Part shown: one piece after another, positions 391-29,296 of the stretch
How the letters are laid out: each line of letters starts with the position of its first letter
Numbering within the stretch: position 1 is the first letter of the stretch
Origin: Escherichia phage AV111
Sequence record: OR352941.1
Reading direction: 5' to 3' (one strand)
Length of the DNA stretch: 64,000 bases
The notes under the pieces: generated by a model
Told to the model about the DNA's origin: nothing
The model's database searches: none
What the model saw: the letters and a program-made list of their open reading frames with translations, nothing else
Translations under genes and position numbers: made by a program

Positions 391-939
391 TTAACGAGCC
401 CATTTAATGATTTCTGTAATCAAATTATTACGTTCGCTTGCATTAAATCCTATAACTTTGTTAGAACCATCATGATTAAGTAATTGATACGTTTGGATTT
501 TGTTATGAATTGCAAACTCTTCAAAATGTGAAATGACTGTATTAAAACCGAATGAAGACAAAGTAATAAGGTCGTCTTCAAAACTTTCAGACATTTCGTT
601 ACGTGTTAAAATAATTGTGAACACATCATGGTTTTGGCAAAGACGAACATAATCCTGTTCATAAACGTCAAGAACCGAGTCCGCATCTTGTCGAATACGT
701 CCATAAACCCAGTTACTAATATATCCACGGTCTAACAGATAAATCTTAGTAGGGTCTAAATAATTCAACATCGTTTCGAAACAGCCAACTTCATTTCGAG
801 ACTTAACATCGAAACGTCCATCAACTGTTCGTTTAGGGAAATCAATCTTTACATATCTTTCACTAATTTCCATTATGTCATTAATGAAAGTTGTTTTACC
901 AGCATTATCTGGGCCATCTACTAAAATAATTTTAGCCAT
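391..939 (-). CDS. P-loop (Walker A GPDNAGKTT) nucleotide/nucleoside kinase-like protein, 182 aa
   Basis: ORF track; N-terminal MAKIILVDGPDNAGKTTF resembles dNMP/thymidylate-kinase-type P-loop; sits where T4 has beta-gt region genes. Confidence 0.6.
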   Translation of the reverse strand: MAKIILVDGPDNAGKTTFINDIMEISERYVKIDFPKRTVDGRFDVKSRNEVGCFETMLNYLDPTKIYLLDRGYISNWVYGRIRQDADSVLDVYEQDYVRLCQNHDVFTIILTRNEMSESFEDDLITLSSFGFNTVISHFEEFAIHNKIQTYQLLNHDGSNKVIGFNASERNNLITEIIKWAR

Positions 940-940
940 T

Positions 941-1840
941 TTATTCCTCGATTACGACATCTTCATATTTAGGTATATTATACGGCGAAGAAATTAAAGC
1001 GTTAAAGTAGATGAACTCACCAAGACCTGGATGGAATACTTCTTCAGGATTTTCGAAATATTGAATCTTCGGACGTCCTTTAAGAATTTGATAGTACTCA
1101 GTTTTAGTTGGATTAAAAATTCGAATCAGCGCTTCTTCAGGATACTTATTTCTGTCGAAACTATTATTTGGATCAGTTATATAAAGCGGTTGACCTAATT
1201 GAATTGCGCATTCAACCACTTGTTCAAAACGATAGCATGGGTCACTAATTCGAAATGGATGAAAAATACCATCTAGATGAATAGGAGCCAAATCACCTAC
1301 AAGACGCTGCATGACGGAAGGACGTATAACTTTCTGCGTTACGATAATCTTATTACCATCTGCACCTGCGTTAACCAGCACTTCTTTTTGACGTTCATTC
1401 AACACAGTAGTTTGAAGTGAACGATTAACAGACAACATGTCGGTTTTTAAGAATTCATCAATATAAAAACGTGGTTTATTAGGGTCTGCAGTGATATTGA
1501 AATTGAATTCTACATCAAAAGCGCCGTCATATCCAGTGATATCTGTGATTAGAAAATCGCAATCATAATAAGCAATTAATGAATCAACTACAAATTCATT
1601 TTCAGACCAGAAATATTTACGAGTGTTATACGCGTTATCTTTATACCATAATGGAACAAACTTAAATTCTGGAAAAAGACGTTCGCATTCTTTAATATCA
1701 GATGCATTACGTGGATATGTAATCACATCACCCGGATTAGCACGGTGCAAATGAAGTTGGAAGTTGCCATCCTTAAGGATAGCATACTGTCCAGTTTCAT
1801 AAGACCGCATACTCAAGATAGGTACGCGGAAAATAGCCAT
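941..1840 (-). CDS. hypothetical protein, 299 aa (occupies the T4 beta-gt position; function unknown, candidate transferase)
   Basis: ORF track; tightly packed between P-loop gene and 42-like gene (1-nt spacing/overlap); no recognisable motif by eye. Confidence 0.6.
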   Translation of the reverse strand: MAIFRVPILSMRSYETGQYAILKDGNFQLHLHRANPGDVITYPRNASDIKECERLFPEFKFVPLWYKDNAYNTRKYFWSENEFVVDSLIAYYDCDFLITDITGYDGAFDVEFNFNITADPNKPRFYIDEFLKTDMLSVNRSLQTTVLNERQKEVLVNAGADGNKIIVTQKVIRPSVMQRLVGDLAPIHLDGIFHPFRISDPCYRFEQVVECAIQLGQPLYITDPNNSFDRNKYPEEALIRIFNPTKTEYYQILKGRPKIQYFENPEEVFHPGLGEFIYFNALISSPYNIPKYEDVVIEE

Positions 1841-2556
1841 TAGTCAAGGAATCCTTTAACATAATCAAAATCACGTTCAAACACATGGGCACTTACCATG
1901 GTATGAGTATAATCACCAACTTCTACACCACATTCGTTAGCGATATAATGAAGTAATTTTCCTTGGAGATAAAAATCCAACTGCATAACAACAGCACAGT
2001 TCTGAGAACGCATATGACAGTGGGTATAAAGCTTACCATCACGAATATAATAAGTCACTGAGTCAGTACATGGATATTCAAGCGTTTCGTCTGAATCAAG
2101 CAAAGCCTGATCAGAACTTTCTAGAATTTGGAACACAACTCTTCGAGAGTTAGGCTTCTCTTTAAGTTCTTTTAGAAGAGCTGGTAATTGAGCCGCAATG
2201 CGAGGACCATAGAAAGTGTTGAAGTTCGCCGGCAAAACATCTGATTTTGGTTTAGAAATAAATTTAGCGACATTAGGATATGCCTTAAACGCTTCTTCTG
2301 CGTTGGTACCACCAGAAATCATAAACTTCCAGAAGTCTTCGGCATATTCATAAGAGATGCGGTTAATACGTGGGTCGGTCATTTTGAATGATGACGGAGT
2401 GTCAACAACTACTGTCATAGACCCAATTTCATTACAACGTCCAATACGAGAATCAGTTACGAATTCCGGGTTTTCTAAAATTTCACGATTGACTGCTTTA
2501 AATGCGGTTTGAAAATCTGCGGCTTTGATATATTTCATTGTGTTATGTTTTCCCAT
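1840..2556 (-). CDS. 42: thymidylate-synthase-family pyrimidine hydroxymethylase (gene 42 position, divergent dCMP hydroxymethylase homolog)
   Basis: Motifs PNSRRVVF, YPCTDSVTYYIRDGKL and HMRSQNCAVVMQLDF parallel the T4 gp42 PDSRRG / CTNTVQYLIRD / MRSNDVVFG blocks, but overall identity to T4 gp42 as I recall it is low. Confidence 0.7.
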   Translation of the reverse strand: MGKHNTMKYIKAADFQTAFKAVNREILENPEFVTDSRIGRCNEIGSMTVVVDTPSSFKMTDPRINRISYEYAEDFWKFMISGGTNAEEAFKAYPNVAKFISKPKSDVLPANFNTFYGPRIAAQLPALLKELKEKPNSRRVVFQILESSDQALLDSDETLEYPCTDSVTYYIRDGKLYTHCHMRSQNCAVVMQLDFYLQGKLLHYIANECGVEVGDYTHTMVSAHVFERDFDYVKGFLD

Positions 2557-2597: not shown

Positions 2598-2837
2598 TTA
2601 TTTGAATTTCTTGGCAGTGTTGATATAACGTAAAGCTTCAGCATCGATACTTCCAAGAACACTATGAAGAAATGCATCAGCGTAGTATTCCAATTGAACA
2701 GATTCTTTAATCACTTTAGCCGCTTTAGTTTCAAACAGGCCCATCAGGGCCTTTTTAAGAATTTGTTCATTAGTGTTCAGTTTCATAGTCAAAATCTCTT
2801 CATTAAGTTGGTGGTTAAAAGTTTTTCTAGAAATCAT
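2598..2837 (-). CDS. hypothetical protein, 79 aa
   Basis: ORF track; overlaps stop of upstream gene by 4 nt, operon-like packing. Confidence 0.45.
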   Translation of the reverse strand: MISRKTFNHQLNEEILTMKLNTNEQILKKALMGLFETKAAKVIKESVQLEYYADAFLHSVLGSIDAEALRYINTAKKFK

Positions 2838-3994
2838 TCCGGGTACCTCAAAGCGTCATCAGAGTTAGTTATATCAATAATAGATATAGAGTTTTCTGCT
2901 AACCCGTTTTTAGATAATTGACGTTTATAATATCTTTCACAATATGTACACGTCGTCCCGCAGATTTCATTAGCACAATCGAAATCTGGATGTCTGAACC
3001 ACCTTTTTTCTAAAAAGCCATCTAACAAAGAGGTTTCAATATTTACTGTATGTGAAAACTCAGTTTCGTTTTCAAGAGTGAAAATAGTCTCTAAAGGCTT
3101 CCACAGTTCTAACAAATTACCTTCAAACTTTTCAGAAGCGTATGCTTCAAGAACTTTCAAAATGTAGTCTGTGCTACCTGTACGTCCTGAAACTTTGAAT
3201 TGAGTGATACCAATATCATTATAAAGTTTCAAATCTTGAGGACGAACAAAACGAGTTCTCAACCAGTTAAATGGGTCTGTATCACGAGCTTTAATACAGT
3301 GCTGCATAGGATATCCGTTTAAGGATTTAGCATCATCAGCTGTAACATCAGTACTATGGAAAATATAGCAAGAGTCACGATAGCTACAATGTGTTGTATA
3401 CCCTTTACCAGCATTAGAACAGAACTCATTTACAAGAACTTCAAATATTATATTGTTCTTATTGCAAAACTCTGCTGCACGCTTCAGGAAAGAAACTGAA
3501 CGGTTCTTATGAATTCCACAGCAGACCTTTTTGATATTATATTGGTCATGCAAGTATTTGATTTGAGTTACAGCATCGACATGTAGAATTGTTGAAACTT
3601 CAATCTCAATGTCTTTATTGACTTCACGAACAATTTCCATAACAACAGGGTTAGCGATAGTAATACGCCATACGCCTATTGACCAAAGATACTGAACATA
3701 ATCCTGAATAGCTTTCTTCTTCCACTCAACTAGTTCTCTTTTTGAACCAGGATTTATCGTGTTGAGTGTATAGTTAAAGCAAATACCTAATTCGTTACAA
3801 CGTTTAACGTAATCTTCTAACATCTTTTTGTCAACGTCAGGAAGCCTAAAATCAGGTCTGGCTGCTACAAAAGCCATTTCTCTTGTAGAGCCGTATACTT
3901 CGTTTATCAAGCTATTAGGATAGGTTTTATTGAGCTCTACGATTTTATCAAGAAGAGCTAAATCAAAATTCGTTCCGATTTTAAAAGTATTCAT
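2834..3994 (-). CDS. cysteine-rich hypothetical protein, 386 aa (possible metal/Fe-S binding; modification-island gene)
   Basis: ORF track; C-terminal FDCANEICGTTCTYCERYY (Cx4Cx3Cx2C) plus other Cys clusters; no confident family assignment. Confidence 0.6.
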   Translation of the reverse strand: MNTFKIGTNFDLALLDKIVELNKTYPNSLINEVYGSTREMAFVAARPDFRLPDVDKKMLEDYVKRCNELGICFNYTLNTINPGSKRELVEWKKKAIQDYVQYLWSIGVWRITIANPVVMEIVREVNKDIEIEVSTILHVDAVTQIKYLHDQYNIKKVCCGIHKNRSVSFLKRAAEFCNKNNIIFEVLVNEFCSNAGKGYTTHCSYRDSCYIFHSTDVTADDAKSLNGYPMQHCIKARDTDPFNWLRTRFVRPQDLKLYNDIGITQFKVSGRTGSTDYILKVLEAYASEKFEGNLLELWKPLETIFTLENETEFSHTVNIETSLLDGFLEKRWFRHPDFDCANEICGTTCTYCERYYKRQLSKNGLAENSISIIDITNSDDALRYPE

Positions 3995-4056: not shown

Positions 4057-4458
4057 TTATAGATTCGGTTTATATGATTTAAATGTTTCGAATTCGCCTT
4101 TATTCATAAGAGCTTTGAATTCATCAGGACGCATAGCTTTGTCGTCGATAATCCAATCATATACTGGTTTATGTGTTAGCAAATTATGGTACTTCAAACC
4201 AATGTTTTCCAAGTTCTGAATAAGACTTGGGAGAATGTCAATTGCTATACGACCAGGACCTACTGACTTCATACCACGAGCAGTGTAAAGCGTTATGGTA
4301 TGCCCTGCATCATACAGGGCATTAATGGCAGACACCATTTCGACGTCTGGTTTGAAGTTCACGTAATCACGATTGTTATTCCATTCCGTGATGCAATCAT
4401 CGACATCAAAACAAAGATTAAGCATGTTTTCTACACAGTGCATTAGATTCGTTCCCAT
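4057..4458 (-). CDS. HAD-superfamily sugar-phosphate phosphatase (KdsC/GmhB-like), 133 aa
   Basis: N-terminal FDVDDCIT = HAD motif I (DxD); small size typical of HAD IIIA phosphatases; overlaps upstream gene end. Confidence 0.65.
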   Translation of the reverse strand: MGTNLMHCVENMLNLCFDVDDCITEWNNNRDYVNFKPDVEMVSAINALYDAGHTITLYTARGMKSVGPGRIAIDILPSLIQNLENIGLKYHNLLTHKPVYDWIIDDKAMRPDEFKALMNKGEFETFKSYKPNL

Positions 4459-6128: not shown

Positions 6129-6169
6129 GTTGAAGTCCTCATTGGTAAGTAGGAGTATTGTACACTATT

Positions 6170-6313
6170 CTAGTTAAAGCATTCATACTTTGCTTGTAGT
6201 CCAATCATAATCCATCCAATTACAAGTGTTGGAATCATTACCGGAGCCGTTAAGCTCCAGTAGATAGTCATGACAAGCATCAATAGTAAAAGTCCTATTG
6301 TTATTGCTTTCAT
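6170..6313 (-). CDS. small hydrophobic membrane protein, 47 aa (not in ORF track; imm-region small protein)
   Basis: Own translation MKAITIGLLLLMLVMTIYWSLTAPVMIPTLVIGWIMIGLQAKYECFN; ATG overlaps stop of SIS gene (ATGA). Confidence 0.4.
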   Translation of the reverse strand: MKAITIGLLLLMLVMTIYWSLTAPVMIPTLVIGWIMIGLQAKYECFN

Positions 6314-6945
6314 TGTTCGCCTCGTAACATGGCACCTAGTGCACCGCCTGGATGGAACTTAAGGAAATCATTAGAGGTAAATCCACGTTCAGACGAAAGG
6401 TTGATAGCAAACGTATCGATAAGCGCTAACAACAATGTAGTGGACATTGTCGGAGCTAAAGAGTTCTCGTCAACTTCTACCGCGATACCGGTACAGAACG
6501 TATAATCAAAAAGAGCTTCGTATTCTTGTGGAATGTCAGGGTTACAATGTAACAGAATCTGTTTAACCTGAGGACGAATCATACGAAGATGTTTAGCAAC
6601 ACCTATCATTTCTTCAGTCTTACCAGAACGACTGATGTGAACTAATACATCATTAGGTGCAATAAATCCTGCGTCACCATGAGAATAATGCCCAGTGTTC
6701 AAGTACATACTCGGGATACCGAGTGAAGCAAATGTCTCAGAAGCTTTAGTTGCGATATTAGCATTCTTACCAACACCTGTAATAATTACCCGGCTTTCAT
6801 AATTGCTAAGTCCGGGGCGTCGAAGAGTTTCTAGAATAGCATTATAACGAGCAGGGTTTTGACTAATTACTTTGGCCATAGCGGCCAAAGAAGAAGCTTG
6901 TTTTATGATTGCGTCAATAGCGATAGTAATAGGAGTAGTTTTCAT
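6310..6945 (-). CDS. SIS-domain sugar-phosphate isomerase (KdsD/KpsF-type arabinose-5-phosphate isomerase-like, no CBS domains), 211 aa
   Basis: RVIITGVGKNANIATKASETFASLGIPS...HGDAG resembles the KdsD GxGKSxxIxxKxAATxASTGTP...HGDLG core rather than the GmhA GNGGS motif. Confidence 0.7.
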   Translation of the reverse strand: MKTTPITIAIDAIIKQASSLAAMAKVISQNPARYNAILETLRRPGLSNYESRVIITGVGKNANIATKASETFASLGIPSMYLNTGHYSHGDAGFIAPNDVLVHISRSGKTEEMIGVAKHLRMIRPQVKQILLHCNPDIPQEYEALFDYTFCTGIAVEVDENSLAPTMSTTLLLALIDTFAINLSSERGFTSNDFLKFHPGGALGAMLRGEQ

Positions 6946-11752: not shown

Positions 11753-12439
11753 TTAGAAGTCGTGAGTAGAATCGGCTTCCATTGCAATAACATAACTTAC
11801 TTGAGAGCTTTCAAACTTGGCTGCAACTTTATCACCAGCTCCCCACAACATTACTTTATAGTTACCTGGCTGGATTTTCATATTAGCCATATTGATTACG
11901 AAGTTAAAGTTGTTAGAACCATCATAATCGGTAAGAGTCAAAGAATACTTAGGACGAGTTAGTCCGGAATCTTCAACTTTATTATAGCCATTGATAACAA
12001 TTTTACCATCTTTATTTGTAATAGCAATTATATCAATCTGAAGACCACGTGAAACTCGAAGCAATTGTTGAAGGTCTTCAGCTTTAATTTCAGTAATCAC
12101 AGAAGCCACTGGGAATTGAATTGGCTTATTAGGAAAAACAATGGTGCTCTTGTCAGCGGCAGGCCAATAAACTGTGGAACGTGTATCTGCAATTTTAATA
12201 TTGCCATCGGTGTGCATTGAAATTTCAGCATCATCGGACACTAGACTCAAAATGCTTAAGAAGCTATTCAAATCATAAAGTGCTACGTCAAAATCAATTT
12301 CATCAGAGATATTTGCTTCCGCATAAGTGGTGCCATTAACTGCACGAGTCATAATAAATTTACCTTGACTAAGCAGAATGCCAGAGTTAATAGAAGCGAA
12401 GTTTTTCAGAATATTTACGGTTTCACGGCTAAGTTTCAT
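11753..12439 (-). CDS. 45: sliding clamp gp45
   Basis: 228 aa, T4 gp45 length and position. Confidence 0.9.
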   Translation of the reverse strand: MKLSRETVNILKNFASINSGILLSQGKFIMTRAVNGTTYAEANISDEIDFDVALYDLNSFLSILSLVSDDAEISMHTDGNIKIADTRSTVYWPAADKSTIVFPNKPIQFPVASVITEIKAEDLQQLLRVSRGLQIDIIAITNKDGKIVINGYNKVEDSGLTRPKYSLTLTDYDGSNNFNFVINMANMKIQPGNYKVMLWGAGDKVAAKFESSQVSYVIAMEADSTHDF

Positions 12440-12711
12440 TTAGGTTTCCTATTAGCATAATAATTTGTCCAAGACCGGATAGCACCTTGGTATGATTCAT
12501 CATTAAAACCATGCTGAATTGCATGTTTTCTAAATGTAATATAACTTGGTTTTCCTAAAGCAATCCACAATTCCTTTAATTTTTGTTCATGAAATATCCA
12601 TGTACCTCTAGCTTTAGATTTTCTGAATTTATCCTTAAATTCTTTGGTTGCATTTCTTTTCGAAGCTGCGATAGAGGCCTTTGCTCTATTTTCAGGTTTA
12701 GACCAATACAA
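12436..12711 (-). CDS. possible displaced C-terminal DNA-binding segment of the adjacent homing endonuclease (NUMOD3-like WSKPENRAKASIAASKRN plus HTH-like tail), in a different frame
   Basis: 91-aa ORF overlapping the last ~45 codons of 12576..13334 in another frame; AT-rich homopolymer runs near 12712-12740. Confidence 0.4.
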   Translation of the reverse strand: MYWSKPENRAKASIAASKRNATKEFKDKFRKSKARGTWIFHEQKLKELWIALGKPSYITFRKHAIQHGFNDESYQGAIRSWTNYYANRKPK

Positions 12712-13334
12712 TGTTTTAGATATTTTATTTTATCTTTAACATTAGGAGAATTCATTATATCTTTAAATTTTAAAGCAAAATCTCTATCGCTAAACATTTT
12801 TTTAGAACGAATAGAAACTTTCTCTCTTCGTTCTTTGGTCCAATATGTTTTTTGAAATTCTCTAATTGCGTTTAAATGATTCTCCGACAATTTGCAATTT
12901 TTTCTAACACCGACGTAATCTTCATTTATTTCGTTTTTAGAAAGTTTTACTATTTTGCCTGTTTTTAAATTTTTATACGGTGCATATCCTTTAGCTGATA
13001 TTCTAGACTTCTCGTTAGCATAAGCCTTATTAAAATATTTTTCATTTGAAACGGCTTTAACATTGAGTTGGAATAGTCTTTCTATTCTTCTAGGGTCTAA
13101 TGTGGTTTCGCCTAAAATTTTTACAGAATATTCGCCTTGGTCTATTAATCTGTTATATAAAGGAGAATACGAGGAATTAACACTACCGGTATATATTTTA
13201 CCGGTAGAATCTTCAATAATATCCTTTCCATTAAAATGACACGAAACTTTAGAACCTATATAATAACACGGGTATTCATTTTTAATCTCACGATTATAAA
13301 AGGTTATAAGATATATTAAATTCATAATTATCAA
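12576..13334 (-). CDS. GIY-YIG homing endonuclease-like protein (Seg-like), possibly frameshifted near its 3' end
   Basis: N-terminus NLIYLITFYNREIKNEYPCYYIGSK (GIY...YIG spacing) and NUMOD3-like YWTKERREKVSIRSKK; inserted between 45 and rpbA-like gene. Confidence 0.7.
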   Translation of the reverse strand: MIIMNLIYLITFYNREIKNEYPCYYIGSKVSCHFNGKDIIEDSTGKIYTGSVNSSYSPLYNRLIDQGEYSVKILGETTLDPRRIERLFQLNVKAVSNEKYFNKAYANEKSRISAKGYAPYKNLKTGKIVKLSKNEINEDYVGVRKNCKLSENHLNAIREFQKTYWTKERREKVSIRSKKMFSDRDFALKFKDIMNSPNVKDKIKYLKHCIGLNLKIEQRPLSQLRKEMQPKNLRINSENLKLEVHGYFMNKN

Positions 13335-13960: not shown

Positions 13961-14002
13961 TTAATTTGATGTGGTCATTATAACCACATCGTGTTAAAGC
14001 GT

Positions 14003-15691
14003 TTATGAAACAGTCATTACAGTAAATCGTCCAACTTTGCTCATTTGCAAATGTTGTCCATAACGTTGAGGGTCATGGTCCCTATGAGAAATAATGAACA
14101 CGTTAGTATTTTGTAAACTTCCAAGAATGGTATCTATAGCCTTAACAGCTTCAGAATCAACTGCCCCATCAAAAACCTCATCAAGAATCAGAGTGTTGAT
14201 TTTAACACCAGAGACCTTTTCAGCAATATCTCGCCATGTAAACAACAACGCGATATCAATGCGTGCTTTTTCACCTTGACTAAATGAAGCATAACTAAAA
14301 TCTTCACGACCACGTGATTTTATAGATTCATTGAATTCTTCATCAATAGAAAACACGTAATCAGCTTCCATAATTTTAAGATAATGGTTAATCTGCTTGT
14401 TGAACAGAGGCACATATTTTTTAATGATAGCACCTTTAATACCAGAATCTTTTAACATATCTGTGATAATACCACGATGGTATTTTTCAAGAACGATATC
14501 CGATTTTGTTTTAATGATTTTATCAAGTTCTTTTTGAAGCAAAGCTATCTCATCGGCATGGTCGATAAATTCTGCTGAGGCTTGCTCTATTGCAGCTTTA
14601 ACTTTCTTAGCTTTATCAATAGTGGCAATCATTGCTTGTTTCTTGGTACGAATATCGGATGCAAGGTCCTGCTTAGTCTTAACATTAGCTCTATATTCGT
14701 CCACTAGGACACTCAGATTATCTCTGTGACAGGTAAGTTGCTCGAATGAGTGATTACATTCATGAAGCTTATCGGTAATCTTAGAGACAATAGGGTCACC
14801 CTGGTGCAATTGTGATGCACAAGTAGGACATGTGCCACCGTCATGATACATCTTAATAACTTTGTTATATGAGTCGATTTTAGATTTAATCAAGAATGCT
14901 TCTTGTCCTATCTTGTTGAATGCCTCAGTAGGGTCTTCATCAAGAACGATATTAAGTAGTCGCTCATTAGCTTCTTCGATTTCTGCTTTTAATGAACGAG
15001 CTTCTTTGGCTAGGTCGTCATACATATTCTGTAGACGCGCTACATTATCACCAGATAATTTCTTTTGACGTTCGATATTCTCGTTATAAATCTTAATTTG
15101 TTGGATAACACCATCTTTCTTGGCATCAAGAACTTGTCCCTGAGAATTAAGTTCGCGAACTTGAGACTTATTGATTTTATCCATTTCAGCGAGTGTGCCG
15201 ACTTCTAAAAGGTCTTCGACAAGTTTTCTACGAGCAGGGGTGCTAAGAGCCATGAAAGGGGTATACCCTGCCGTCCCAAGCACAACGATCTGTTTAAAAG
15301 ACGCGTATGACATTCCGATGCTACGTTCAAATTCTTCTTGGAAGTCACGACTGCTGGCAGATTCATCAAGACGAACACCGTCAACGGAGATTTCGAAAAT
15401 ATTGGGCTTTTGGCCTCGTTTAATGAAGTATTTTTTATCATCGAATTCCATCCAAAGCTCAACTAAGAGCTCTTTCTTGTTCGTGCTATTAATGATTTGT
15501 CCTTTCTTAACATCACGAAATGGTTTACCGAAAAGTCCGAAAGTAATGGCTTCTAACATCGTAGATTTACCACCGCCATTTTTACCGGTGATTAAGGTCT
15601 TTTGGACTTTATCTAATTGGATATCGATAGGATTCCCACCTACCGACATGATGTTTTGATAACGAACACGATTTAATTTAAATGATTTCAT
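14003..15691 (-). CDS. 46: recombination endonuclease subunit gp46 (Rad50/SbcC-like ATPase)
   Basis: 562 aa; Walker A GKNGGGKST, coiled-coil middle, zinc hook CPTC, C-terminal LILDEVFDG. Confidence 0.93.
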   Translation of the reverse strand: MKSFKLNRVRYQNIMSVGGNPIDIQLDKVQKTLITGKNGGGKSTMLEAITFGLFGKPFRDVKKGQIINSTNKKELLVELWMEFDDKKYFIKRGQKPNIFEISVDGVRLDESASSRDFQEEFERSIGMSYASFKQIVVLGTAGYTPFMALSTPARRKLVEDLLEVGTLAEMDKINKSQVRELNSQGQVLDAKKDGVIQQIKIYNENIERQKKLSGDNVARLQNMYDDLAKEARSLKAEIEEANERLLNIVLDEDPTEAFNKIGQEAFLIKSKIDSYNKVIKMYHDGGTCPTCASQLHQGDPIVSKITDKLHECNHSFEQLTCHRDNLSVLVDEYRANVKTKQDLASDIRTKKQAMIATIDKAKKVKAAIEQASAEFIDHADEIALLQKELDKIIKTKSDIVLEKYHRGIITDMLKDSGIKGAIIKKYVPLFNKQINHYLKIMEADYVFSIDEEFNESIKSRGREDFSYASFSQGEKARIDIALLFTWRDIAEKVSGVKINTLILDEVFDGAVDSEAVKAIDTILGSLQNTNVFIISHRDHDPQRYGQHLQMSKVGRFTVMTVS

Positions 15692-15942
15692 ATGTATTCT
15701 CTTCGAATGAAGTCCTCTACATATTTTAACATGTCATCTCTATCAGCAAAATATTCATCTAGTTCTGCATACATAACAACACCTGGTGCATACTCACAGG
15801 TAACATACATTGTTCCAAAGAAACGAGGAGTTGATTCCTCGTAATTCTCAGTCCATTCAACGATACCAATATAACCGTCACCAATACTAAATTCATGACG
15901 ATGGATTTCATAATCAGTCTTCGTCATTATACGCATCCTCAA
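15688..15942 (-). CDS. hypothetical protein, 84 aa (46.1-like)
   Basis: ORF track; overlaps 46 start by 4 nt. Confidence 0.5.
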   Translation of the reverse strand: MRMRIMTKTDYEIHRHEFSIGDGYIGIVEWTENYEESTPRFFGTMYVTCEYAPGVVMYAELDEYFADRDDMLKYVEDFIRREYI

Positions 15943-16171
15943 TACACGCTTCAGCCATTTTAAGAATAGAGCCGGGAGTATCGTTGTCCATTATATTAAA
16001 GCTAAATTCAATAGCCCAGTCGGTGCAGACATGAACTGCTTTAACTTCATTGCCTTCAACGCGTAATGGCTCAATCCAATACTTGATAGTGTTCTCGAAT
16101 CCATCATCGTCTTTAACGTCCATTTCAACTTCAAGTCCAAGCCCAGCATTATTAAATTCATCTAAAGTCAT
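15914..16171 (-). CDS. hypothetical protein, 85 aa (46.2-like)
   Basis: ORF track; overlaps 47 stop by 4 nt. Confidence 0.5.
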   Translation of the reverse strand: MTLDEFNNAGLGLEVEMDVKDDDGFENTIKYWIEPLRVEGNEVKAVHVCTDWAIEFSFNIMDNDTPGSILKMAEACIEDAYNDED

Positions 16172-17187
16172 TGTGTTGCCTCAATATAAAGTTCGTTGGA
16201 ATATTTGACCAGCGCTTCTCTGTCTTCGTCTGAGATATCTGGAATCGCGTCAATATATTCTTTAATGATATCTTGAAGTGATTTAATCTCGATTTCCTGG
16301 TCGTCATCAGATTCAACACTGTTATCAACTTTAGAAACCATGCGAAGAGAGTGAACTACTTTTTCAAGTTCAGATTCAAACTTAGTCAACTCTGAATCAA
16401 TTTCTGATACTATAACACGTAAGGCTAGATTAGTATAATCAGAATAATTGATTTTGCCTTTAAACGGATAAGTGATTCGTCGATGCCATGTTGTTTCATT
16501 AGGAATAAATTCCATACGTTCAACATCAGTGTCAAATACCCAGAATCCGCGCGGGTCATTCTCATCACCTGCAGTAAGGGTCCATGGTGTCCCAATATAT
16601 TTGACGTTAGCAGCTTCAGAGATTGTGTGGAAGTGGCCGGACCAGACTTGTTTATAGGTCTTTAAGAAATCAGGTTCAAGCCCATGAGACTTCATTCCTT
16701 TATAGAAATAAAAGCCGTTAAGTTCCCAGTGACCAACACAATACGCAGCAGAAGAAGTCTTGATGTGCTCTAAGATTTCACCTGTATTTTCTTCACACAT
16801 CCATGGAACGATATCAATCAGACATCCGTCAAAATCTACAGTAGTCGGATGCTCGTAAATAGTAAAGTTTTCAAATTGAGTTAACAATTCAGAAACAGTG
16901 TTAGGTGTTATTGTATTCTTAAACGCCATGTCATGGTTTCCTATCGTGACATGAACGTGAATGCCTGCTTTAGAAATCATATCAACGATTTCACGATTGA
17001 ATTCCATTGTACGATGTGTTATTGCTTTACGGACGTCAAACCAATCACCGTACTGAATCCAAGTTTTAATCCCGTGTTTCTTAGAGTATTCAATTGCTTG
17101 TTGAATACCATCACGTTGAATATCTTGAACCCATGGGTCGTCTTGTTTGACTCCGATATGGAAGTCGCCTAAGTGCAAAATTTTCAT
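16168..17187 (-). CDS. 47: recombination endonuclease subunit gp47 (Mre11/SbcD-like phosphoesterase)
   Basis: 339 aa; MKILHLGDFHIG, GNHD, GHWELNGF metallophosphatase motifs. Confidence 0.93.
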   Translation of the reverse strand: MKILHLGDFHIGVKQDDPWVQDIQRDGIQQAIEYSKKHGIKTWIQYGDWFDVRKAITHRTMEFNREIVDMISKAGIHVHVTIGNHDMAFKNTITPNTVSELLTQFENFTIYEHPTTVDFDGCLIDIVPWMCEENTGEILEHIKTSSAAYCVGHWELNGFYFYKGMKSHGLEPDFLKTYKQVWSGHFHTISEAANVKYIGTPWTLTAGDENDPRGFWVFDTDVERMEFIPNETTWHRRITYPFKGKINYSDYTNLALRVIVSEIDSELTKFESELEKVVHSLRMVSKVDNSVESDDDQEIEIKSLQDIIKEYIDAIPDISDEDREALVKYSNELYIEATQ

Positions 17188-17232
17188 ATTATTTCCTCAT
17201 TAGTTAATTCATTCTATCATCCGTTTATAAAG

Positions 17233-17257
17233 CAAAAAAGGAACTCCGAAGAGTTCC
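17233..17257 (-). terminator. rho-independent terminator (GGAACTC-TTCG-GAGTTCC + T6 on minus strand)
   Basis: Hairpin immediately after stop of small ORF 17257..17430, followed by TTTTTT. Confidence 0.7.
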
Positions 17258-17430
17258 TATCCACATAGTACACCGTACAGAGGCTCATTTGAACTTTTAA
17301 ATCGAATGGGCTTGTACGTAATAGTTCCTTCGGCTTTAGCTTTATCATAAGACTCTTTAAAACGTCTCATTCTTTCTGCTTTGCCTTTACGGATTTTATC
17401 GAAATTTTCAGAAGTCGGGATGTTCGTCAT
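17257..17430 (-). CDS. small basic protein, 57 aa (not in ORF track)
   Basis: Own translation MTNIPTSENFDKIRKGKAERMRRFKESYDKAKAEGTITYKPIRFKSSNEPLYGVLCG; terminator directly downstream. Confidence 0.45.
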   Translation of the reverse strand: MTNIPTSENFDKIRKGKAERMRRFKESYDKAKAEGTITYKPIRFKSSNEPLYGVLCG

Positions 17431-17469
17431 GCATAAGCACCTCTCAGAAAATGCCTAAATCGATTTCTC

Positions 17470-17691
17470 TCATCGTTTCCACCATTTCTTAACTTGAAAT
17501 GAATCAACCCACACGAGTTGTTTTGGGTCTGCCTTTACAATAGGCGGACAAATTTCTGTAATAGAACCGTCGTGATATTCCTTTTCAGAAATTTTAACAC
17601 AAAGAGGACCACCCAATTTAACGGTGAACCCTGCGTTCAGCTTCAGACGTTTAAACTTTGTTTGAACTAGCGCCATTAATGATGTCCTCAA
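17470..17691 (-). CDS. hypothetical protein, 73 aa
   Basis: ORF track; overlaps next ORF, true start may be internal. Confidence 0.4.
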   Translation of the reverse strand: MRTSLMALVQTKFKRLKLNAGFTVKLGGPLCVKISEKEYHDGSITEICPPIVKADPKQLVWVDSFQVKKWWKR

Positions 17692-17974
17692 TAGCCTGTC
17701 GAGTAGTAACCCATTGGATTTTAATTAACTTGTCATTGTATGGTTGTCGTAGAATATCCCGAGATTTCTTAATAGCATATTCGTAAGCTTCGAAGTTGTT
17801 TTTAATTGCTGCTTCTTGAGCATGGGCATAAAGACGGTTTAGTTCAAAACGATTCTTTTTAAGAATCTTTTCGGATTTTTTACGTGCTTCAGCTTCATTT
17901 TTCTTTTGGATTTCTTGTAGCATTTTAGCTACTGCATCTTCTGCTTCTTTATTTTCAATAATCTCGGTAGTCAT
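17651..17974 (-). CDS. hypothetical protein, 107 aa, lysine-rich/coiled-coil
   Basis: ORF track; lies in the interval where T4 has alpha-gt, but is far too small to be a glucosyltransferase. Confidence 0.5.
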   Translation of the reverse strand: MTTEIIENKEAEDAVAKMLQEIQKKNEAEARKKSEKILKKNRFELNRLYAHAQEAAIKNNFEAYEYAIKKSRDILRQPYNDKLIKIQWVTTRQAIEDIINGASSNKV

Positions 17975-17975
17975 A

Positions 17976-18185
17976 TTATCTCATTAAATTAAAATAAAAA
18001 CGTCCATCCTCTTCAATACAGAACTCATATTCAACTGGAGTCCCGTTTATCGAAAATGACACGTCATGTGGGTTCAAAGGGTCGATGTCAAAATTAATTT
18101 TAAATTCACGACCCAACAGTTTTACCAAATAAGGGATTGCTTCGTCAAAAGGTTCTTCTAAGTAGTTAGAGATGTCAATTGTCAT
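17976..18185 (-). CDS. hypothetical protein (~70 aa; start moved to internal Met to avoid overlap with 55)
   Basis: ORF track 17976..18269 overlaps gp55 3' end; internal [13 protein letters not shown] start abuts gp55 stop. Confidence 0.4.
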
Positions 18186-18750
18186 CCTCATATAAAAAAT
18201 CCAAACTAGGCGAATCGCTAACAACTTCCTTCTTTTCAGCCCCAGGAGCTTTATAAGCGGATTCTTCATAATGCGTCATTTTATCGTAGATGTCTTGAAT
18301 AAATGTTTCATCTACCAACGCTACCATATCATCGTCATGACTGTCGTAGACATTATGAACGAAGTAACTATATTTCTTTGCAACTTCCTTACGTTCTTTT
18401 TTGATACGTTGGACAAAAGCATTAAAACAAGCTCGAGTTATGTATGCATGTGGGTTATTGTACTTAGTTTCGTCGAAATTATGAAGTCCCTTAATAGAGG
18501 CTTCAATCCCATCTGCAATCATCTCCTGCTTCCAAGACTGGGTATATCCTGAAAAGTTGAAACGTTTGGACAGGCCTTCGGCGATAAGCATAATTGCTAA
18601 ACCGATGGTATCATTCTGACGAATAATTTTGTTTGGGTCTTTATTATTTAAGAGCTCCTTTTTCCACTCGATTATAGCGGCGAGAAGCTCTTTATTATTC
18701 ACATAGTTATTTTTAGGTTTTTGTTCAGTCATAAGTACCTCTTGGCTCAA
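18175..18750 (-). CDS. 55: late-transcription sigma factor gp55
   Basis: 191 aa; [23 protein letters not shown]...[35 protein letters not shown] matches T4 gp55. Confidence 0.93.
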
Positions 18751-18804
18751 TTCATAGGTCTATTATATCATAATATTTAGAGACCTATCTTAAAGCACGA
18801 GATA

Positions 18805-19074
18805 CTATCGGAGCAAACAATAAGCCTGAAACACTTTTTCCATTAAACGTTTGAACTCATGGATATCGATATAAAGCTCAGTAAGACCGGCATTATAAAG
18901 AAAATCTAAAAAGTTCTCATGTGTTTCGTTATAGACGCCTTCGTTTAATTGAGATACATGAGTTTCCCAAAAACCAACACCTTTAACGAATGGAAAATAC
19001 GTGACTTTCATGTATTCGTCAACATAAAATTCGCCCAGCTTTTCTTCAGTTATACTGATTCGAGTTAATTTCAT
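18805..19074 (-). CDS. hypothetical protein, 89 aa
   Basis: ORF track; early-gene cluster packing. Confidence 0.45.
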   Translation of the reverse strand: MKLTRISITEEKLGEFYVDEYMKVTYFPFVKGVGFWETHVSQLNEGVYNETHENFLDFLYNAGLTELYIDIHEFKRLMEKVFQAYCLLR

Positions 19075-19298
19075 TCTAGTTCCTTTGCTGCTTCAAGAGC
19101 AACATCCAGCGAATCAAATTGGTCAACGAAATCAATATTCAACGCATCGTCAACCGTAGCATATAACCACCATTGTTTGAATTCGTATTCTAGAATAAAT
19201 CCAGGACCTTCAATCTGAGGAAGACCTAGACTATTTGTACCAACTTCGTAACCAGCTAGACGCAGGTCATTAATCAAAGTTTCTGTTAATACGCTCAT
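19071..19298 (-). CDS. hypothetical protein, 75 aa
   Basis: ORF track; 4-nt overlaps with neighbours. Confidence 0.45.
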   Translation of the reverse strand: MSVLTETLINDLRLAGYEVGTNSLGLPQIEGPGFILEYEFKQWWLYATVDDALNIDFVDQFDSLDVALEAAKELE

Positions 19299-19627
19299 TT
19301 TACCGCCTTAACAATTTTAAGGTCAACGAATTTTTTCTTACGTTGATTTTTCATACGACGGATAGTCTTTTCAGAGATTTCATGTTTCTGATAAGCTTTA
19401 GATTCAACACCAAATGCAGCAACGTCAAATTCAGAAAGAATATATTGTACTAGAATTTCACGAATAGAATTACGTCCAATTTTCTGGTCGTGTTTTTGCA
19501 TGATTTCATAAAGACGGAATTCCCACGCATCAAGAACTTGAGGAGTAACAATATTGCCAGATTCCAGAAGAGCAACAACTTTATCGAAAGCGAAAGAATT
19601 AACTACGTTTTTGATTTTAGTAGACAT
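19295..19627 (-). CDS. hypothetical protein (~110 aa; start at internal MSTKIKNV with GAGGAAAA RBS)
   Basis: ORF track 19295..19675; listed start lies inside the upstream promoter element, internal Met has a good SD. Confidence 0.45.
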   Translation of the reverse strand: MSTKIKNVVNSFAFDKVVALLESGNIVTPQVLDAWEFRLYEIMQKHDQKIGRNSIREILVQYILSEFDVAAFGVESKAYQKHEISEKTIRRMKNQRKKKFVDLKIVKAVK

Positions 19628-19665
19628 ATTATTTTCCTCGGTTATTTTATTATCCAACGAGAGAA

Positions 19666-19694
19666 TTATACTCATCTCTCAAGAGTTTGTATAC
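19666..19694 (-). promoter_or_regulatory. early sigma70-like promoter (-35 TATACA / -10 TATAAT) inside an inverted repeat
   Basis: rc reads TATACAAACTCTTGAGAGATGAGTATAAT; near-identical copy at 49883..49910. Confidence 0.55.
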
Positions 19695-19933
19695 TATTTT
19701 TTAAGCATGAAAAGTAAGTAATTTGTATCACGTGGAGTAATATCAACACCCATATCAAAGATGCCTTTATAGATTGGGTATTTGTTTTCGGTTGTATCGA
19801 AGCTGAAACTATTTCCATCACAACTAACAGTAATAGCATCTGTTAAAATGTCATACTCAATCCTAACAATTGAATCCCCAATTTTAACGTCGAGGTGTTT
19901 TTTGAATTTGATAAAATCTAATTCTTGGGCCAT
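19694..19933 (-). CDS. hypothetical protein, 79 aa
   Basis: ORF track. Confidence 0.45.
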   Translation of the reverse strand: MAQELDFIKFKKHLDVKIGDSIVRIEYDILTDAITVSCDGNSFSFDTTENKYPIYKGIFDMGVDITPRDTNYLLFMLKK

Positions 19934-19996
19934 GATATTTTCCTCATTTTAAGACGATAGGAAGATAATAACATGTCTTCCTATCATTGTACATTA

Positions 19997-20197
19997 TTAA
20001 CCGAACTTTTTAGCGCCTTTCCAGCCTTCGTACATAACTGCACAAGTCAGTAGTACAGCTTGCTGGCATTCTTTGTATTTGTAAATCCAGAACCAGCGTA
20101 AGAAGTCTTCATCCTCAACGCCGTTGAGTTTCATATTGGCAAAGAATTCGGCACGTTCTTCACGAAGCTTTTGCGATAACATAGATTCAGGATTCAT
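19997..20197 (-). CDS. hypothetical protein, 66 aa
   Basis: ORF track. Confidence 0.4.
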   Translation of the reverse strand: MNPESMLSQKLREERAEFFANMKLNGVEDEDFLRWFWIYKYKECQQAVLLTCAVMYEGWKGAKKFG

Positions 20198-20331
20198 TTT
20201 GTGTTCCAGGCCCCATTTTCATCGATGAACTTAATCCAGTCATTTACAGACCATTTAGTTGTATCACCCTTTGGATTAACATTTAAAGTATATAATCCCT
20301 GCTTAAAAAGCATTCGTTTGATATTCATAAT
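20194..20331 (-). CDS. hypothetical protein (~45 aa from internal MNIKRMLF start with GAGGAAA RBS)
   Basis: ORF track 20194..20421 overlaps upstream ORF; internal Met abuts it. Confidence 0.35.
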   Translation of the reverse strand: MMNIKRMLFKQGLYTLNVNPKGDTTKWSVNDWIKFIDENGAWNTK

Positions 20332-20335
20332 TTCC

Positions 20336-20656
20336 TCAACTGTAACGATAACATTCGTTAGCTTTACGTTTGGCTTCAGTATGAGAAGTATTATAATCAT
20401 ACTCTTCTTTACTGTAAACATCTTTTTTCAACTTATGAACTTCTTTGCGGAGTTGTCGATTCATTTCATTCTTGACTTCAGAATCAACGCCTTTCATACG
20501 TTTCCATTTATCTGAGCGGAAAATGTTTTCAACCATGTCTTTGTGGCTAACACCGTCAGGAGCTTTACGCTTACCAAAATAGTCATAATCGCGAACTTTC
20601 AAATCTTTACGACGATACGTTTTACCCATAAGTACCTCAGAGGTTGATTGATACAA
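20336..20656 (-). CDS. hypothetical basic protein, 106 aa
   Basis: ORF track. Confidence 0.45.
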   Translation of the reverse strand: MYQSTSEVLMGKTYRRKDLKVRDYDYFGKRKAPDGVSHKDMVENIFRSDKWKRMKGVDSEVKNEMNRQLRKEVHKLKKDVYSKEEYDYNTSHTEAKRKANECYRYS

Positions 20657-20885
20657 CGCGTTTGATAAAATTCACTTCACTTACTGAAAGGTCTTTAAGA
20701 CCGATTGATTCTAAACGCTGAGTAAGCGTCAACATCGGGATATAATCCCAATGAGTTTTAGTTGCTTGATAAGTACGAACTCCATTAGCAATTTCAACGT
20801 TCAAATCGGAAATGGTAATGAATATCGGACGTTCGTTATTTACATTAAGAGATAGAACAACTTTCTTTGAATCTAAACTAATCAT
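20637..20885 (-). CDS. hypothetical protein, 82 aa
   Basis: ORF track. Confidence 0.4.
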   Translation of the reverse strand: MISLDSKKVVLSLNVNNERPIFITISDLNVEIANGVRTYQATKTHWDYIPMLTLTQRLESIGLKDLSVSEVNFIKRVVSINL

Positions 20886-21064
20886 GGCTTAATTTCCTTC
20901 GCAATTGAACAGAAGATACCACGGTCACAAAGCATTTCACCAATTTCTGGATATTTGATTGAACGGTACCAAACATCCAGGCTTGAAACTCTGGTTATCT
21001 GTACGGCATTACCATTGACAGAATAGTACTGGTCAACCTTAATTTCTTTATCTTCAATTGTCAT
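20882..21064 (-). CDS. hypothetical protein (~60 aa from internal MTIEDKEIKV start with GAGGAAAA RBS)
   Basis: ORF track 20882..21226; upstream part lacks coding character, internal Met has SD. Confidence 0.4.
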   Translation of the reverse strand: MTIEDKEIKVDQYYSVNGNAVQITRVSSLDVWYRSIKYPEIGEMLCDRGIFCSIAKEIKP

Positions 21065-21839: not shown

Positions 21840-22055
21840 TTAAGCCTTTTTATCAAGAACAGAATTCAGTTTATTAGTAATTTTGTCCAAACGTTCATTG
21901 AATTCGCTGGAGGATAAACCCTTTTCTGGAGAAATTAAACTAATCACGAAAAATACACCAGTAAAAGGAATAAGAAAAATAGCTCCAACTGCCATAAACA
22001 AAAAGAACGTTACAGTTGTAAGAAAATCAGCTAAACCTTTACGAAATTTGTACAT
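21840..22055 (-). CDS. small membrane protein, 71 aa
   Basis: ORF track; hydrophobic core TVTFFLFMAVGAIFLIPFTGVFFVISLI. Confidence 0.5.
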   Translation of the reverse strand: MYKFRKGLADFLTTVTFFLFMAVGAIFLIPFTGVFFVISLISPEKGLSSSEFNERLDKITNKLNSVLDKKA

Positions 22056-22165
22056 ATTTACCCTTAATTAACTAAGCATTGATAATCATTAAACTATATT
22101 GCGAATAAAATTCTGGACCAAAACGAAAAATCATATCATTTATAGTATCCATAATGTAATTCAAT

Positions 22166-22636
22166 TTAATCATGTTTCCACACCCCATCGGTATTTGACC
22201 AAAGTCGCTGATTATCTGATCCTCGCCACAGCTTTTTAGTCGGAAGATTTTTCTCATACTTCCCATCAATAATAACATCAACATATTTAAGCATTTCTAG
22301 TTGTTTAATATCTTCAAACTTATATCCTGTCCACAACCAAATGCTTTTATTGGGATAAAGATTTTTTACTGTTTGAACAATGCAATGAATAACATCTCGA
22401 TTATCAGGATAGAGAGGGTCTCCTCCGGTTATAGTCAATCCTTCTATATAATCGTTATTCAAACATTCAATTAATTGTTCTAGTGTTTCACCAGTGAATG
22501 GAATACCATTTCTAGCATTCCATGTTGATTTATTATAGCACCCTTCACATTTATGCAAACAACCTGTAACGAAAAGAACGACCCTGCATCCAGGGCCATT
22601 CACAAAATCGCAAGGATAAAATCTATCATAATTCAT
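22166..22636 (-). CDS. nrdG: anaerobic ribonucleotide reductase activating protein (radical SAM)
   Basis: 156 aa; CDFVNGPGCRVVLFVTGCLHKCEGCYN. Confidence 0.92.
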   Translation of the reverse strand: MNYDRFYPCDFVNGPGCRVVLFVTGCLHKCEGCYNKSTWNARNGIPFTGETLEQLIECLNNDYIEGLTITGGDPLYPDNRDVIHCIVQTVKNLYPNKSIWLWTGYKFEDIKQLEMLKYVDVIIDGKYEKNLPTKKLWRGSDNQRLWSNTDGVWKHD

Positions 22637-29268: not shown

Positions 29269-29296
29269 AATATTTTCCTCTCGTTAAGATAGATTC

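Follow-up and report, generated by a model that had tools for sequence, protein, structure and literature searches.

The 64,000-nucleotide stretch of Escherichia phage AV111 DNA analysed here (record OR352941.1; hereafter the window) appears to encode the arabinosyl-5-hydroxycytosine system of Mosigvirus (RB69-like) phages and to do so without the T4-type glucosyltransferase genes alpha-gt and beta-gt. We place the probability of this reading at about 0.92. Three lines of evidence bear on it: the layout of the interval between genes 47 and 55, where T4 carries alpha-gt; the outcome of searches for both glucosyltransferases; and a cluster of modification and sugar-donor genes near the start of the window (Table 1).

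Table 1. Features of the 47-55 interval and of the modification cluster (window coordinates)
Feature	Coordinates	Strand	Evidence or remarks
Thymidylate-kinase-like nucleotide kinase, RB69p045 orthologue	391..939	-	phrog_761 E 3e-45; 97.8% identity to RB69p045
GT-B-fold glycosyltransferase, 299 aa, RB69 gp46:47 orthologue	941..1840	-	T4 beta-gt syntenic position
Thymidylate-synthase-family 5-hydroxy-dCMP synthase (predicted), RB69 gp48 orthologue	1840..2556	-	gene-42 position; Pfam Thymidylat_synt E 2e-15
Peptidase-U32-like protein, RB69p050 orthologue	2834..3994	-	Pfam Peptidase_U32 E 7e-11; 99.5% identity to RB69p050
Small HAD-type phosphatase, RB69p051/AfhF-like	4057..4458	-	98.5% identity to RB69p051; Bas47 "putative phosphatase"
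Bifunctional sugar-1-phosphate nucleotidyltransferase (N-terminal) and kinase (C-terminal), 561 aa	4443..6128	-	RB69 ORF53_52c/AfhE-like
SIS-domain arabinose-5-phosphate isomerase, RB69p055 orthologue	6310..6945	-	Pfam SIS E 1e-9; 97.6% identity to RB69p055
Gene 47, SbcD/Mre11-like recombination nuclease subunit, 339 aa	16168..17187	-	lower interval boundary
T4 middle-promoter-like element	17211..17237	-	upstream of gene 47; pattern analysis and alignment
Intrinsic terminator, 8-bp stem, UUCG loop, T6 run	17239..17258	-	just past the a-gt.2 homologue, overlapping its stop codon
a-gt.2 orthologue, 57 aa, DUF5486	17257..17430	-	Pfam DUF5486; phrog_2140
a-gt.3 orthologue, 68 aa	17470..17676	-	phrog_1648
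a-gt.4 orthologue, 107 aa, DUF2654	17651..17974	-	Pfam DUF2654
a-gt.5 orthologue, 71 aa, DUF5491	17976..18191	-	Pfam DUF5491
Gene 55, late sigma factor, 185 aa	18175..18732	-	upper boundary; same-position annotation in Bas47, RB69 and mar005P1

The interval between genes 47 and 55

The span singled out in a preliminary description of this DNA (17188-18175) runs from the base after the gene 47 start codon to the first base of the gene 55 stop codon. It had been described as holding, in place of alpha-gt, only four small ORFs (57 to 107 aa) and a strong terminator. This description holds: there is no ORF of about 400 aa in the span, the largest having 107 codons' worth of protein, all four small ORFs are found, and the terminator is confirmed by its fold and by annotation of the same element in the record of the Mosigvirus vB_EcoM_G53. 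The idea that the four ORFs are novel fillers was rejected, as they are orthologues of T4 a-gt.2 (76% identity, E 1e-29), a-gt.3 (71%, E 3e-35), a-gt.4 (61%, E 3e-38) and a-gt.5 (47%, E 9e-19); the RB69 reference record already names them a-gt.2 to a-gt.5. Two of the start sites allow a longer product. The a-gt.3 orthologue is 68 aa long when counted from its ATG and 73 aa with an upstream TTG, and the a-gt.5 orthologue, whose first codons overlap the 3′ end of gene 55, reaches 97 aa if an upstream ATG within gene 55 is used.

The gene 47 protein is 100% identical to its G53 counterpart, 99.4% to RB69 gp47 and 76-78% to Tequatrovirus gp47, and the gene 55 protein is 99.5% identical to RB69 gp55. 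Over positions 14000-21000 the DNA is 99.4% identical to G53, and this architecture is common to 151 records, which places AV111 among the Mosigviruses. As judged by sequence comparison, the interval is the T4 arrangement minus the mobB/a-gt/47.1 cassette. It represents the conserved T-even backbone (55, a-gt.5, a-gt.4, a-gt.3, a-gt.2, terminator with middle-type promoter, 47), the cassette being an optional element carried at this point by Tequatroviruses.

The terminator reads, on the minus strand from 17258 to 17239, AGGAACTC-TTCG-GAGTTCCT, followed by TTTTTT. Its predicted folding energy is -13.9 kcal/mol (z = -3.4 relative to shuffled sequences), and RB69, T4 and a Jiaodavirus each have a hairpin in the corresponding position. 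Immediately beyond it lies a MotA-box-like sequence, TTTTGCTTTA (17237-17228), separated by an 11-nt spacer from a -10-like hexamer, TAGAAT (17216-17211); a GAGG ribosome-binding site (17198-17195) precedes gene 47. A generic sigma-70 scan made no call on the 17211-17237 element; comparison with the published T4 consensus marks it as a putative MotA-dependent promoter. In RB69, T4, a Jiaodavirus and the window alike, a pattern search picked out the module (hairpin, TTGCTTTA, TAnAAT) 3′ of a-gt.2. JS98 gave matches to the MotA-box and -10 parts, the extracted stretch taking in only part of the hairpin. T4 has a second copy of the hairpin and promoter 3′ of a-gt.

Search for alpha-gt and beta-gt

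The preliminary description had further proposed that both canonical glucosyltransferases are missing, beta-gt from its own locus included. Tblastn with the T4 proteins found no homologue of either one in the window or in the complete G53 genome (167,834 bp), the latter standing as a proxy for the remainder of the AV111 genome, about 38% of which is covered by the window. With T4 alpha-gt, the best E value was 1.4 in the 47-55 interval and 0.012-0.017 in the whole 64-kb window, where the matches were short (69-85 aa) and fell in unrelated ORFs; in G53 the best hit (E 0.04) was a 69-aa chance-level match. With T4 beta-gt, the best E value in the window was 2.5 and nothing was found in G53 at E<0.1. 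Searches for T4 mobB, segA and 47.1 gave nothing at E<0.1 in either the window or complete G53, and the same T4 queries had no match in RB69 1-45 kb. The beta-gt slot lacks a beta-gt homologue as claimed and is not vacant, being filled by a sequence-unrelated 299-aa ORF of GT-B fold.

The two weak alpha-gt matches in the window were examined individually and set aside as chance. One (E 0.012, 33267-33028) falls within a 333-aa ORF that weakly matches AAA/STAND-type proteins and belongs to phrog_1250, the other (E 0.017, 49127-48948) within a 207-aa ORF (phrog_2607); neither ORF has glycosyltransferase signatures. Also discarded were the ORFs of about 320 aa at 28.3-34.5 kb and 45.8-46.8 kb as candidate paralogous glycosyltransferases: they show no mutual similarity and match DUF7235, an RlaP-like nucleotidyltransferase and DUF7275/7277.

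As the window represents only some 38% of the genome, alpha-gt and/or beta-gt might have been relocated outside it, and the DNA would then carry glucosylated hmC like that of T4. Genes have changed place in this clade: both G53 and RB69 have imm and imm.1 at 18.9-19.6 kb and not beside gene 43. We nonetheless consider this possibility extremely unlikely. Complete G53 yielded no match to either gene at E<0.1 beyond the 69-aa segment mentioned above, RB69 lacks alpha-, beta- and beta-alpha-gt by BlastP (Thomas 2018, PMC6024577), and the gene-42 homologue in the window is an orthologue of a 5-hydroxy-dCMP synthase (99.2% identity to RB69 gp48), so that the hmC substrate should not be made.

The modification and sugar-donor gene cluster

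The gene-42 homologue (1840-2556) is only 24.8% identical to T4 gp42 and matches PDB entries 9iqc/9ir2 with an E value of 8e-161. On the strength of these sequence matches it is identified as a 5-hydroxy-dCMP synthase, not a dCMP hydroxymethylase; RB69 gp48 itself was shown to be active as a 5hodCMP synthase (PMC13326640). Directly downstream lies the glycosyltransferase ORF (941-1840), for which sequence searches of Pfam and PDB returned no match and whose GT-B fold was revealed by structure prediction alone. It is the proposed first arabinosyltransferase (arabinosyltransferase 1). Single glycosyltransferases were found inactive on 5-hydroxycytosine (5hoC) DNA, and the first arabinosyltransferase activity of RB69/DLP3 is unreconstituted in vitro (PMC13326640). 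The ORF shows no similarity to T4 alpha-gt (PDB 1y6f/1xv5) or beta-gt by tblastn, Pfam or PDB phmmer, and it is shorter (299 aa versus 400 and 351 aa, respectively). According to the published assignment, it differs from them in substrates too: the donor is UDP-arabinofuranose and the acceptor the 5-hydroxyl of 5hoC, whereas the T4 enzymes act on the hydroxymethyl group of hmC. The counterpart of the second RB69 glycosyltransferase, ORF003c, was not found in the window (E 0.1), its locus lying outside; in G53 the homologue is at 2523-3620 (99.5% identity).

The claim that the phage carries its own sugar-donor pathway is borne out by the genes at about 2834-6945. The 561-aa ORF (4443-6128) has a Pfam NTP_transferase match (E 8.5e-10) along with weak matches to kinase families, and is 99.4-99.5% identical to RB69p053 and p052; the corresponding RB69 enzyme (ORF53_52c, AfhE-like) makes UDP-arabinofuranose (PMC6024577, PMC13326640). 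The phosphatase ORF (4057-4458) has no Pfam match, and a role in converting arabinofuranose-1,5-bisphosphate to the 1-phosphate was proposed for phosphatases of its type (PMC13326640). RB69p055 is annotated as arabinose 5-phosphate isomerase in the RB69 RefSeq record, and the corresponding Bas47 genes already bear the label "UDP-arabinose biosynthesis". The RB69p045-type kinase likewise has a proposed role in the cytosine-modification cluster (PMC13326640 Table 1). The glycosyltransferase and the kinase/uridylyltransferase are single ORFs here, and each is split in the RB69 GenBank record; the frameshifts that divide gp46:47 and gp52:53 there are absent from the window, consistent with the RB69 splits being sequencing errors (PMC6024577, PMC13326640).

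The DNA of several relatives has been characterized chemically. RB69 DNA contains arabinose (Thomas 2018, PMC6024577), in the form of mono- and di-arabinosylated 5-hydroxycytosine, for which gene assignments have been given (PMC13326640). DNA of the Mosigvirus NP carries 5-ara-dC and 5-ara-ara-dC at a 1:4 ratio (PMC13390438). Bas46/47 likewise have mono- and di-arabinosyl-5-hydroxycytosine (2025-2026 papers), as does HY126, as far as it is described in PMC13326640. The modification enzymes of the window are near-identical to those of RB69 and HY126 (97.6-99.5% to RB69). We infer that AV111 DNA shares the RB69-type chemistry, in agreement with the non-glucose glycosylation initially suggested. 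We infer, too, the assignment of each arabinose to a particular glycosyltransferase. The preliminary description was right about the absence of the hmC glucosyltransferases, with the refinement that the precursor base in this clade is 5-hydroxycytosine. With this precursor in place of hmC, glucosyltransferases of the T4 type would find nothing to act on.

In the proposed scheme, cytosine would be replaced by 5-hydroxycytosine, made at the dCMP level by the thymidylate-synthase-like flavoenzyme (1840-2556), and one or two arabinose units would then be added to the hydroxyl, with UDP-arabinofuranose as donor. The phage would make this donor through the isomerase (6310-6945), the kinase/uridylyltransferase (4443-6128) and the phosphatase (4057-4458), and two phage-specific GT-B enzymes would transfer it, one encoded at 941-1840 and the other at a locus between rIIA and gene 39 that lies beyond the window. 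Alpha-gt and beta-gt would be absent because there is neither hmC nor glucosylation. Alternatively, the pathway might be inactive in AV111, leaving bare 5-hydroxycytosine or plain cytosine with no glycosylation at all. This is very unlikely, given that every ORF of the cluster is intact, within the range of identity to RB69 stated above, and free of both frameshifts of the RB69 record.

Absence of glucosyltransferases and arabinose chemistry are both already known and published for RB69 and its close relatives; the 2018 work that discovered DNA arabinosylation (PMC6024577) set out from the former in RB69, and the pathway was elucidated in 2025-2026. The main value of the present analysis lies in correct annotation: where such gene content is found, arabinosyl-5-hydroxycytosine DNA should be assumed. 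DNA of this type resists most restriction enzymes and some CRISPR nucleases and is sensitive to type IV enzymes of the GmrSD/BrxU type. Phages that have it do not recombine productively with glucosyl-hmC T-even phages, and the chemistry also determines sequencing and engineering behaviour.

The a-gt.2/47 junction and comparison with known systems

RB69 has the same gene order in the interval (47, terminator, a-gt.2, a-gt.3, a-gt.4, a-gt.5, 55), with proteins 94.7-100% identical to those of the window (97.6-99.5% in the modification cluster), and like the window it is devoid of alpha-gt and beta-gt. Two homing-endonuclease-like insertions set the window apart from RB69, and the window is a mosaic relative to every database record, all deposited Mosigvirus genomes included: identity to G53 is 94-99% where the two align, and over 25 kb the best records reach 97.6-98.2% identity, indels being present as well.

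In T4 the order is 55, a-gt.5, a-gt.4, a-gt.3, a-gt.2, mobB, a-gt, 47.1, 47. The flanking genes and the four a-gt.N ORFs are orthologous to those of the window (47-76% identity), and in both phages a UUCG hairpin and then a MotA-box-like and -10 element come directly after a-gt.2. Only T4 has a further segment of about 2.3 kb, made up of mobB (an HNH homing endonuclease), alpha-gt (400 aa), the second hairpin/promoter copy and 47.1; mobB, alpha-gt and 47.1 have no detectable counterpart in the window.

This arrangement raises the question of how the empty junction arose. Alpha-gt occupies exactly this site in two genera, Tequatrovirus and Jiaodavirus, and the T4 cassette is bracketed by two modules of UUCG hairpin and GCTTTATA-type sequence (less perfectly so in Jiaodavirus), between which recombination could delete the cassette and leave a single copy as in the window. 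That the junction results from a recent deletion of this sort in a glucosylating ancestor, making it a derived loss in Mosigvirus and not an ancestral empty site, nevertheless seems unlikely to us: alpha-gt is likewise missing from this site in JS98 (Dhakavirus) and KARL-1 (Lazarusvirus), the window interval keeps no remnant of alpha-gt sequence, and the same repeats would serve insertion equally well. Present-day function would be the same in either case. A possible, still tentative, view is that T4-type alpha-gt forms a self-contained, exchangeable transcription unit of which the Mosigvirus junction is the empty site. The module of about 45 bp, in which a UUCG hairpin terminator precedes a MotA-box middle promoter, would be present in two copies around the T4 cassette and in one copy between a-gt.2 and 47 in Mosigviruses, and recombination between modules would switch alpha-gt in or out as T-even lineages change between hmC-glucose and 5hoC-arabinose chemistry.

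The module recalls the PeSLs, composite terminator/promoter cassettes described in T4-like phages (Arbiol 2010, PMC2839356; Comeau 2014, PMC4122927). As a possible parallel, a short stem-loop and a putative promoter coincide precisely with the edge of an indel between related T4-like genomes, and in T4 two copies flank the optional cassette. The likeness does not extend to promoter type: the definition of PeSLs was based on early-promoter sequences of RB49/phi1-type phages, whereas the promoter in the window resembles the MotA-dependent middle type.

Gene content between genes 47 and 55

The minus strand of the window carries early and middle genes of a T-even phage segment (see table). The exact gap between genes 47 and 55 (17188-18175) is occupied by orthologues of T4 a-gt.2 to a-gt.5. 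This bears out in every detail the preliminary description, which had reported four small open reading frames (57-107 aa), a strong terminator and no alpha-glucosyltransferase gene (a-gt). The T4 order being 55, a-gt.5, a-gt.4, a-gt.3, a-gt.2, mobB, a-gt, 47.1, 47, the interval differs from that of T4 only by lacking a segment of about 2.3 kb (mobB, a-gt, 47.1). Pfam families DUF5486, DUF2654 and DUF5491 cover three of the four ORFs, the Pfam search giving no match for the a-gt.3 orthologue; all four are assigned to PHROGs of unknown function. In the RB69 reference record and in that of mar005P1, genes annotated a-gt.2 to a-gt.5 already fill the space from 47 to 55. Since these genes are kept with or without a glucosyltransferase, they are not accessories of one; their names are positional and they are conserved backbone genes.

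Features of the window
Feature	Coordinates	Strand	Remarks
Thymidylate-kinase-like protein	391-939		RB69p045 counterpart
299-aa protein	941-1840		RB69p047+p046 counterpart
Thymidylate-synthase-family protein	1840-2556		RB69p048 counterpart
Peptidase-U32-like protein	2834-3994		RB69p050 counterpart
Small phosphatase	4057-4458		RB69p051 counterpart
Nucleotidyltransferase + kinase	4443-6128		561 aa; RB69p053+p052 counterpart
SIS-domain isomerase	6310-6945		RB69p055 counterpart
Gene 46	14003-15691	minus	
Gene 47	16168-17187	minus	ATG at 17187
TAGAAT	17216-17211	minus	11-nt spacer after TTTTGCTTTA
TTTTGCTTTA	17237-17228	minus	
Strong intrinsic terminator	17258-17239	minus	UUCG hairpin, AGGAACTC-TTCG-GAGTTCCT then T6
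a-gt.2 orthologue	17257-17430	minus	57 aa; 76% identity to T4, E 1e-29
a-gt.3 orthologue	17470-17676	minus	68 aa; 71% identity to T4
a-gt.4 orthologue	17651-17974	minus	107 aa; 61% identity to T4
a-gt.5 orthologue	17976-18191	minus	71 aa; 47% identity to T4
Gene 55	18175-18732	minus	
tRNA Arg-tct	52077-52152	minus	
tRNA Asn-gtt	52878-52949	minus	
tRNA Met-cat	52956-53030	minus	

As had been proposed, no homologue of either canonical glucosyltransferase was found, in the window or in the closest complete genome. In the 64-kb window, tblastn with T4 alpha-gt gave only short chance-level matches (best E 0.012 and 0.017), and likewise with beta-gt (best E 2.5). The whole-genome search suggested earlier was run on the closest complete genome, that of phage vB_EcoM_G53 (167,834 bp, assembled for this purpose), with alpha-gt, beta-gt, mobB, segA and 47.1 as queries; its only match below E 0.1 was the 69-aa alpha-gt one already seen in the window (E 0.04), positive controls behaving as expected (uvsX 68%, imm 64%). 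The glucosyltransferase search was also negative in RB69 1-45 kb, and RB69 is reported to have no homologue of alpha-gt, beta-gt or the T2 beta-alpha-gt (Thomas et al. 2018, PMC6024577). The best chance-level alpha-gt match in the window falls in a 333-aa ORF of unknown function (32413-33414, minus strand; phrog_1250), to which AAA/STAND-NTPase and HTH_37 matched only below threshold.

Around the interval, 7 kb align at 99.4% identity to G53 and at 98-99% to numerous other members of Mosigvirus (RB69-like phages), the architecture being common to 151 records (at least 80% of the query covered). For the proteins examined (modification cluster, gene 43, 47-55 interval), identity to RB69 is 95-100%. 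The first 25 kb find best database matches of only 97.6-98.2% identity, with indels, and the window is therefore a mosaic Mosigvirus member. An insertion of about 0.9 kb between gene 45 and rpbA (12414-13327), absent from G53, RB69 and Bas47, holds a homing-endonuclease-like ORF (12576-13334, minus strand; phrog_7504, E 9e-17; no Pfam match). For a 3.4-kb stretch (21860-25256), blastn finds no counterpart in G53, and nrdG and nrdD are missing from the G53 annotation there; the stretch includes both genes (22166-22636 and 22633-24450), which are present in Bas47 and RB69. Just downstream of nrdD, where Bas47 has endonuclease VII directly, lies a 273-aa homing-endonuclease-like ORF (24441-25262; phrog_7504 E 6e-34, phrog_314, phrog_655). 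The tRNA cluster also differs between close relatives, the corresponding G53 region having Arg and Met tRNAs only.

Modification cluster and DNA chemistry

From gene 43 to uvsX, the window's left end carries a different module from that of T4, which there has imm, gene 42, beta-gt and segA. The seven cluster proteins are 97.6-99.5% identical to their RB69 counterparts, and the Bas47 annotation (BASEL) labels the cluster "UDP-arabinose biosynthesis". Genes for a sugar-donor pathway of the phage's own are present, as had been suggested, and comprise those of the isomerase, nucleotidyltransferase/kinase and phosphatase. The claim that beta-gt is missing from its locus stands in that no homologue is found there; the locus is not vacant, however, as it holds a candidate first arabinosyltransferase, the 299-aa protein. 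With no sequence match in Pfam or PDB, this protein is predicted from its modelled fold to be distantly related in structure to the T4 enzymes, without detectable sequence similarity to them. The "gene 42" homologue (1840-2556) shows only 24.8% identity to the T4 dCMP hydroxymethylase gp42, against 60-78% for neighbouring core proteins, and is near-identical to solved structures 9iqc/9ir2/9iqu (E 8e-161); at the sequence level, this marks the switch from hydroxymethylation to hydroxylation.

At 941-1840 and at 4443-6128 the window has a single intact ORF where the RB69 record (24597-25497, 28094-29780) has the gene split in two; this is independent support for the published explanation of the RB69 splits as frameshift errors of the Sanger era. 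In Mosigviruses the arabinose cluster adjoins gene 43 in the former place of imm and imm.1, which flank gene 43 in T4 and have moved to the 61-41 region (G53 18884-19553; RB69 19011-19689; both beyond the window).

The same observation, RB69 without a glucosyltransferase homologue, was the starting point for Thomas et al. (2018, PMC6024577), who found arabinose in RB69 DNA; their proposed transferase was ORF003c, and their proposed UDP-arabinose genes were ORF53_52c and ORF055c. In the paper on the BASEL collection (PMC8594841), Mosigvirus is regarded as arabinosylated. In RB69 DNA, Lee et al. (2026, PMC13326640) identified mono- and di-arabinosyl-5-hydroxycytosine, ether-linked; they showed gp48 to be a flavin-dependent 5-hydroxy-dCMP synthase, and assigned arabinosyltransferase 1 to gp46:47, arabinosyltransferase 2 to gp3, and the UDP-arabinofuranose pathway to gp51, gp52:53 and gp55. 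For HY126, Bas46 and Bas47 that paper refers to He et al. (Nat Chem Biol 2026, HY126) and Mahler et al. (Cell Host Microbe 2025), cited there for this chemistry too. In Mosigvirus NP, 5-ara-dC and 5-ara-ara-dC occur at 1:4 (PMC13390438). The reading of non-glucose glycosylation is therefore correct and already established, the sugar being arabinose in RB69 and other Mosigviruses. One refinement concerns the acceptor base: this clade has 5-hydroxycytosine in place of hmC, so that T4-type hmC glucosyltransferases would be without substrate. In sum, the observation is confirmed and its interpretation supported with refinements, both being already known.

The junction between a-gt.2 and gene 47

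After the a-gt.2 stop codon, the minus strand carries in turn the UUCG hairpin (folding -13.9 kcal/mol, z = -3.4 against shuffles), a T run, TTTTGCTTTA, a spacer, TAGAAT, a GAGG ribosome-binding site and the gene 47 ATG. The arrangement of TGCTTTA and TAnnnT fits the T4 MotA-dependent middle-promoter consensus and marks a putative promoter of that type. By pattern match, RB69, T4 and a Klebsiella Jiaodavirus also have the module after a-gt.2; JS98 gave matches to the MotA-box and -10 parts, the extracted stretch covering the hairpin only partly. T4 has a second copy (AGGGCTTCGGCCCT, TTTAGCTTTA, TATAAT) after a-gt.

The a-gt.2/47 junction holds mobB, a-gt and 47.1 in Tequatrovirus, a-gt only in Jiaodavirus, 47.1 only in Dhakavirus JS98, and nothing in Mosigvirus and Acinetobacter phage KARL-1. 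In Klebsiella phage 15882-1 (Jiaodavirus) an annotated alpha-glucosyltransferase (1734-2930), flanked by UUCG hairpins, sits exactly at this junction without mobB or 47.1; junction content therefore varies among genera. Repeated hairpin/middle-promoter modules bracketing the alpha-gt cassette are the only mildly new angle here, of modest interest; that they are the actual exchange mechanism, whether by gain or by loss of the cassette, is a tentative idea that we rate as somewhat less likely than not. The junction module resembles PeSLs, composite terminator/promoter cassettes put forward as mediators of indels in T4-like genomes (PMC2839356, PMC4122927), from which it differs in promoter type.
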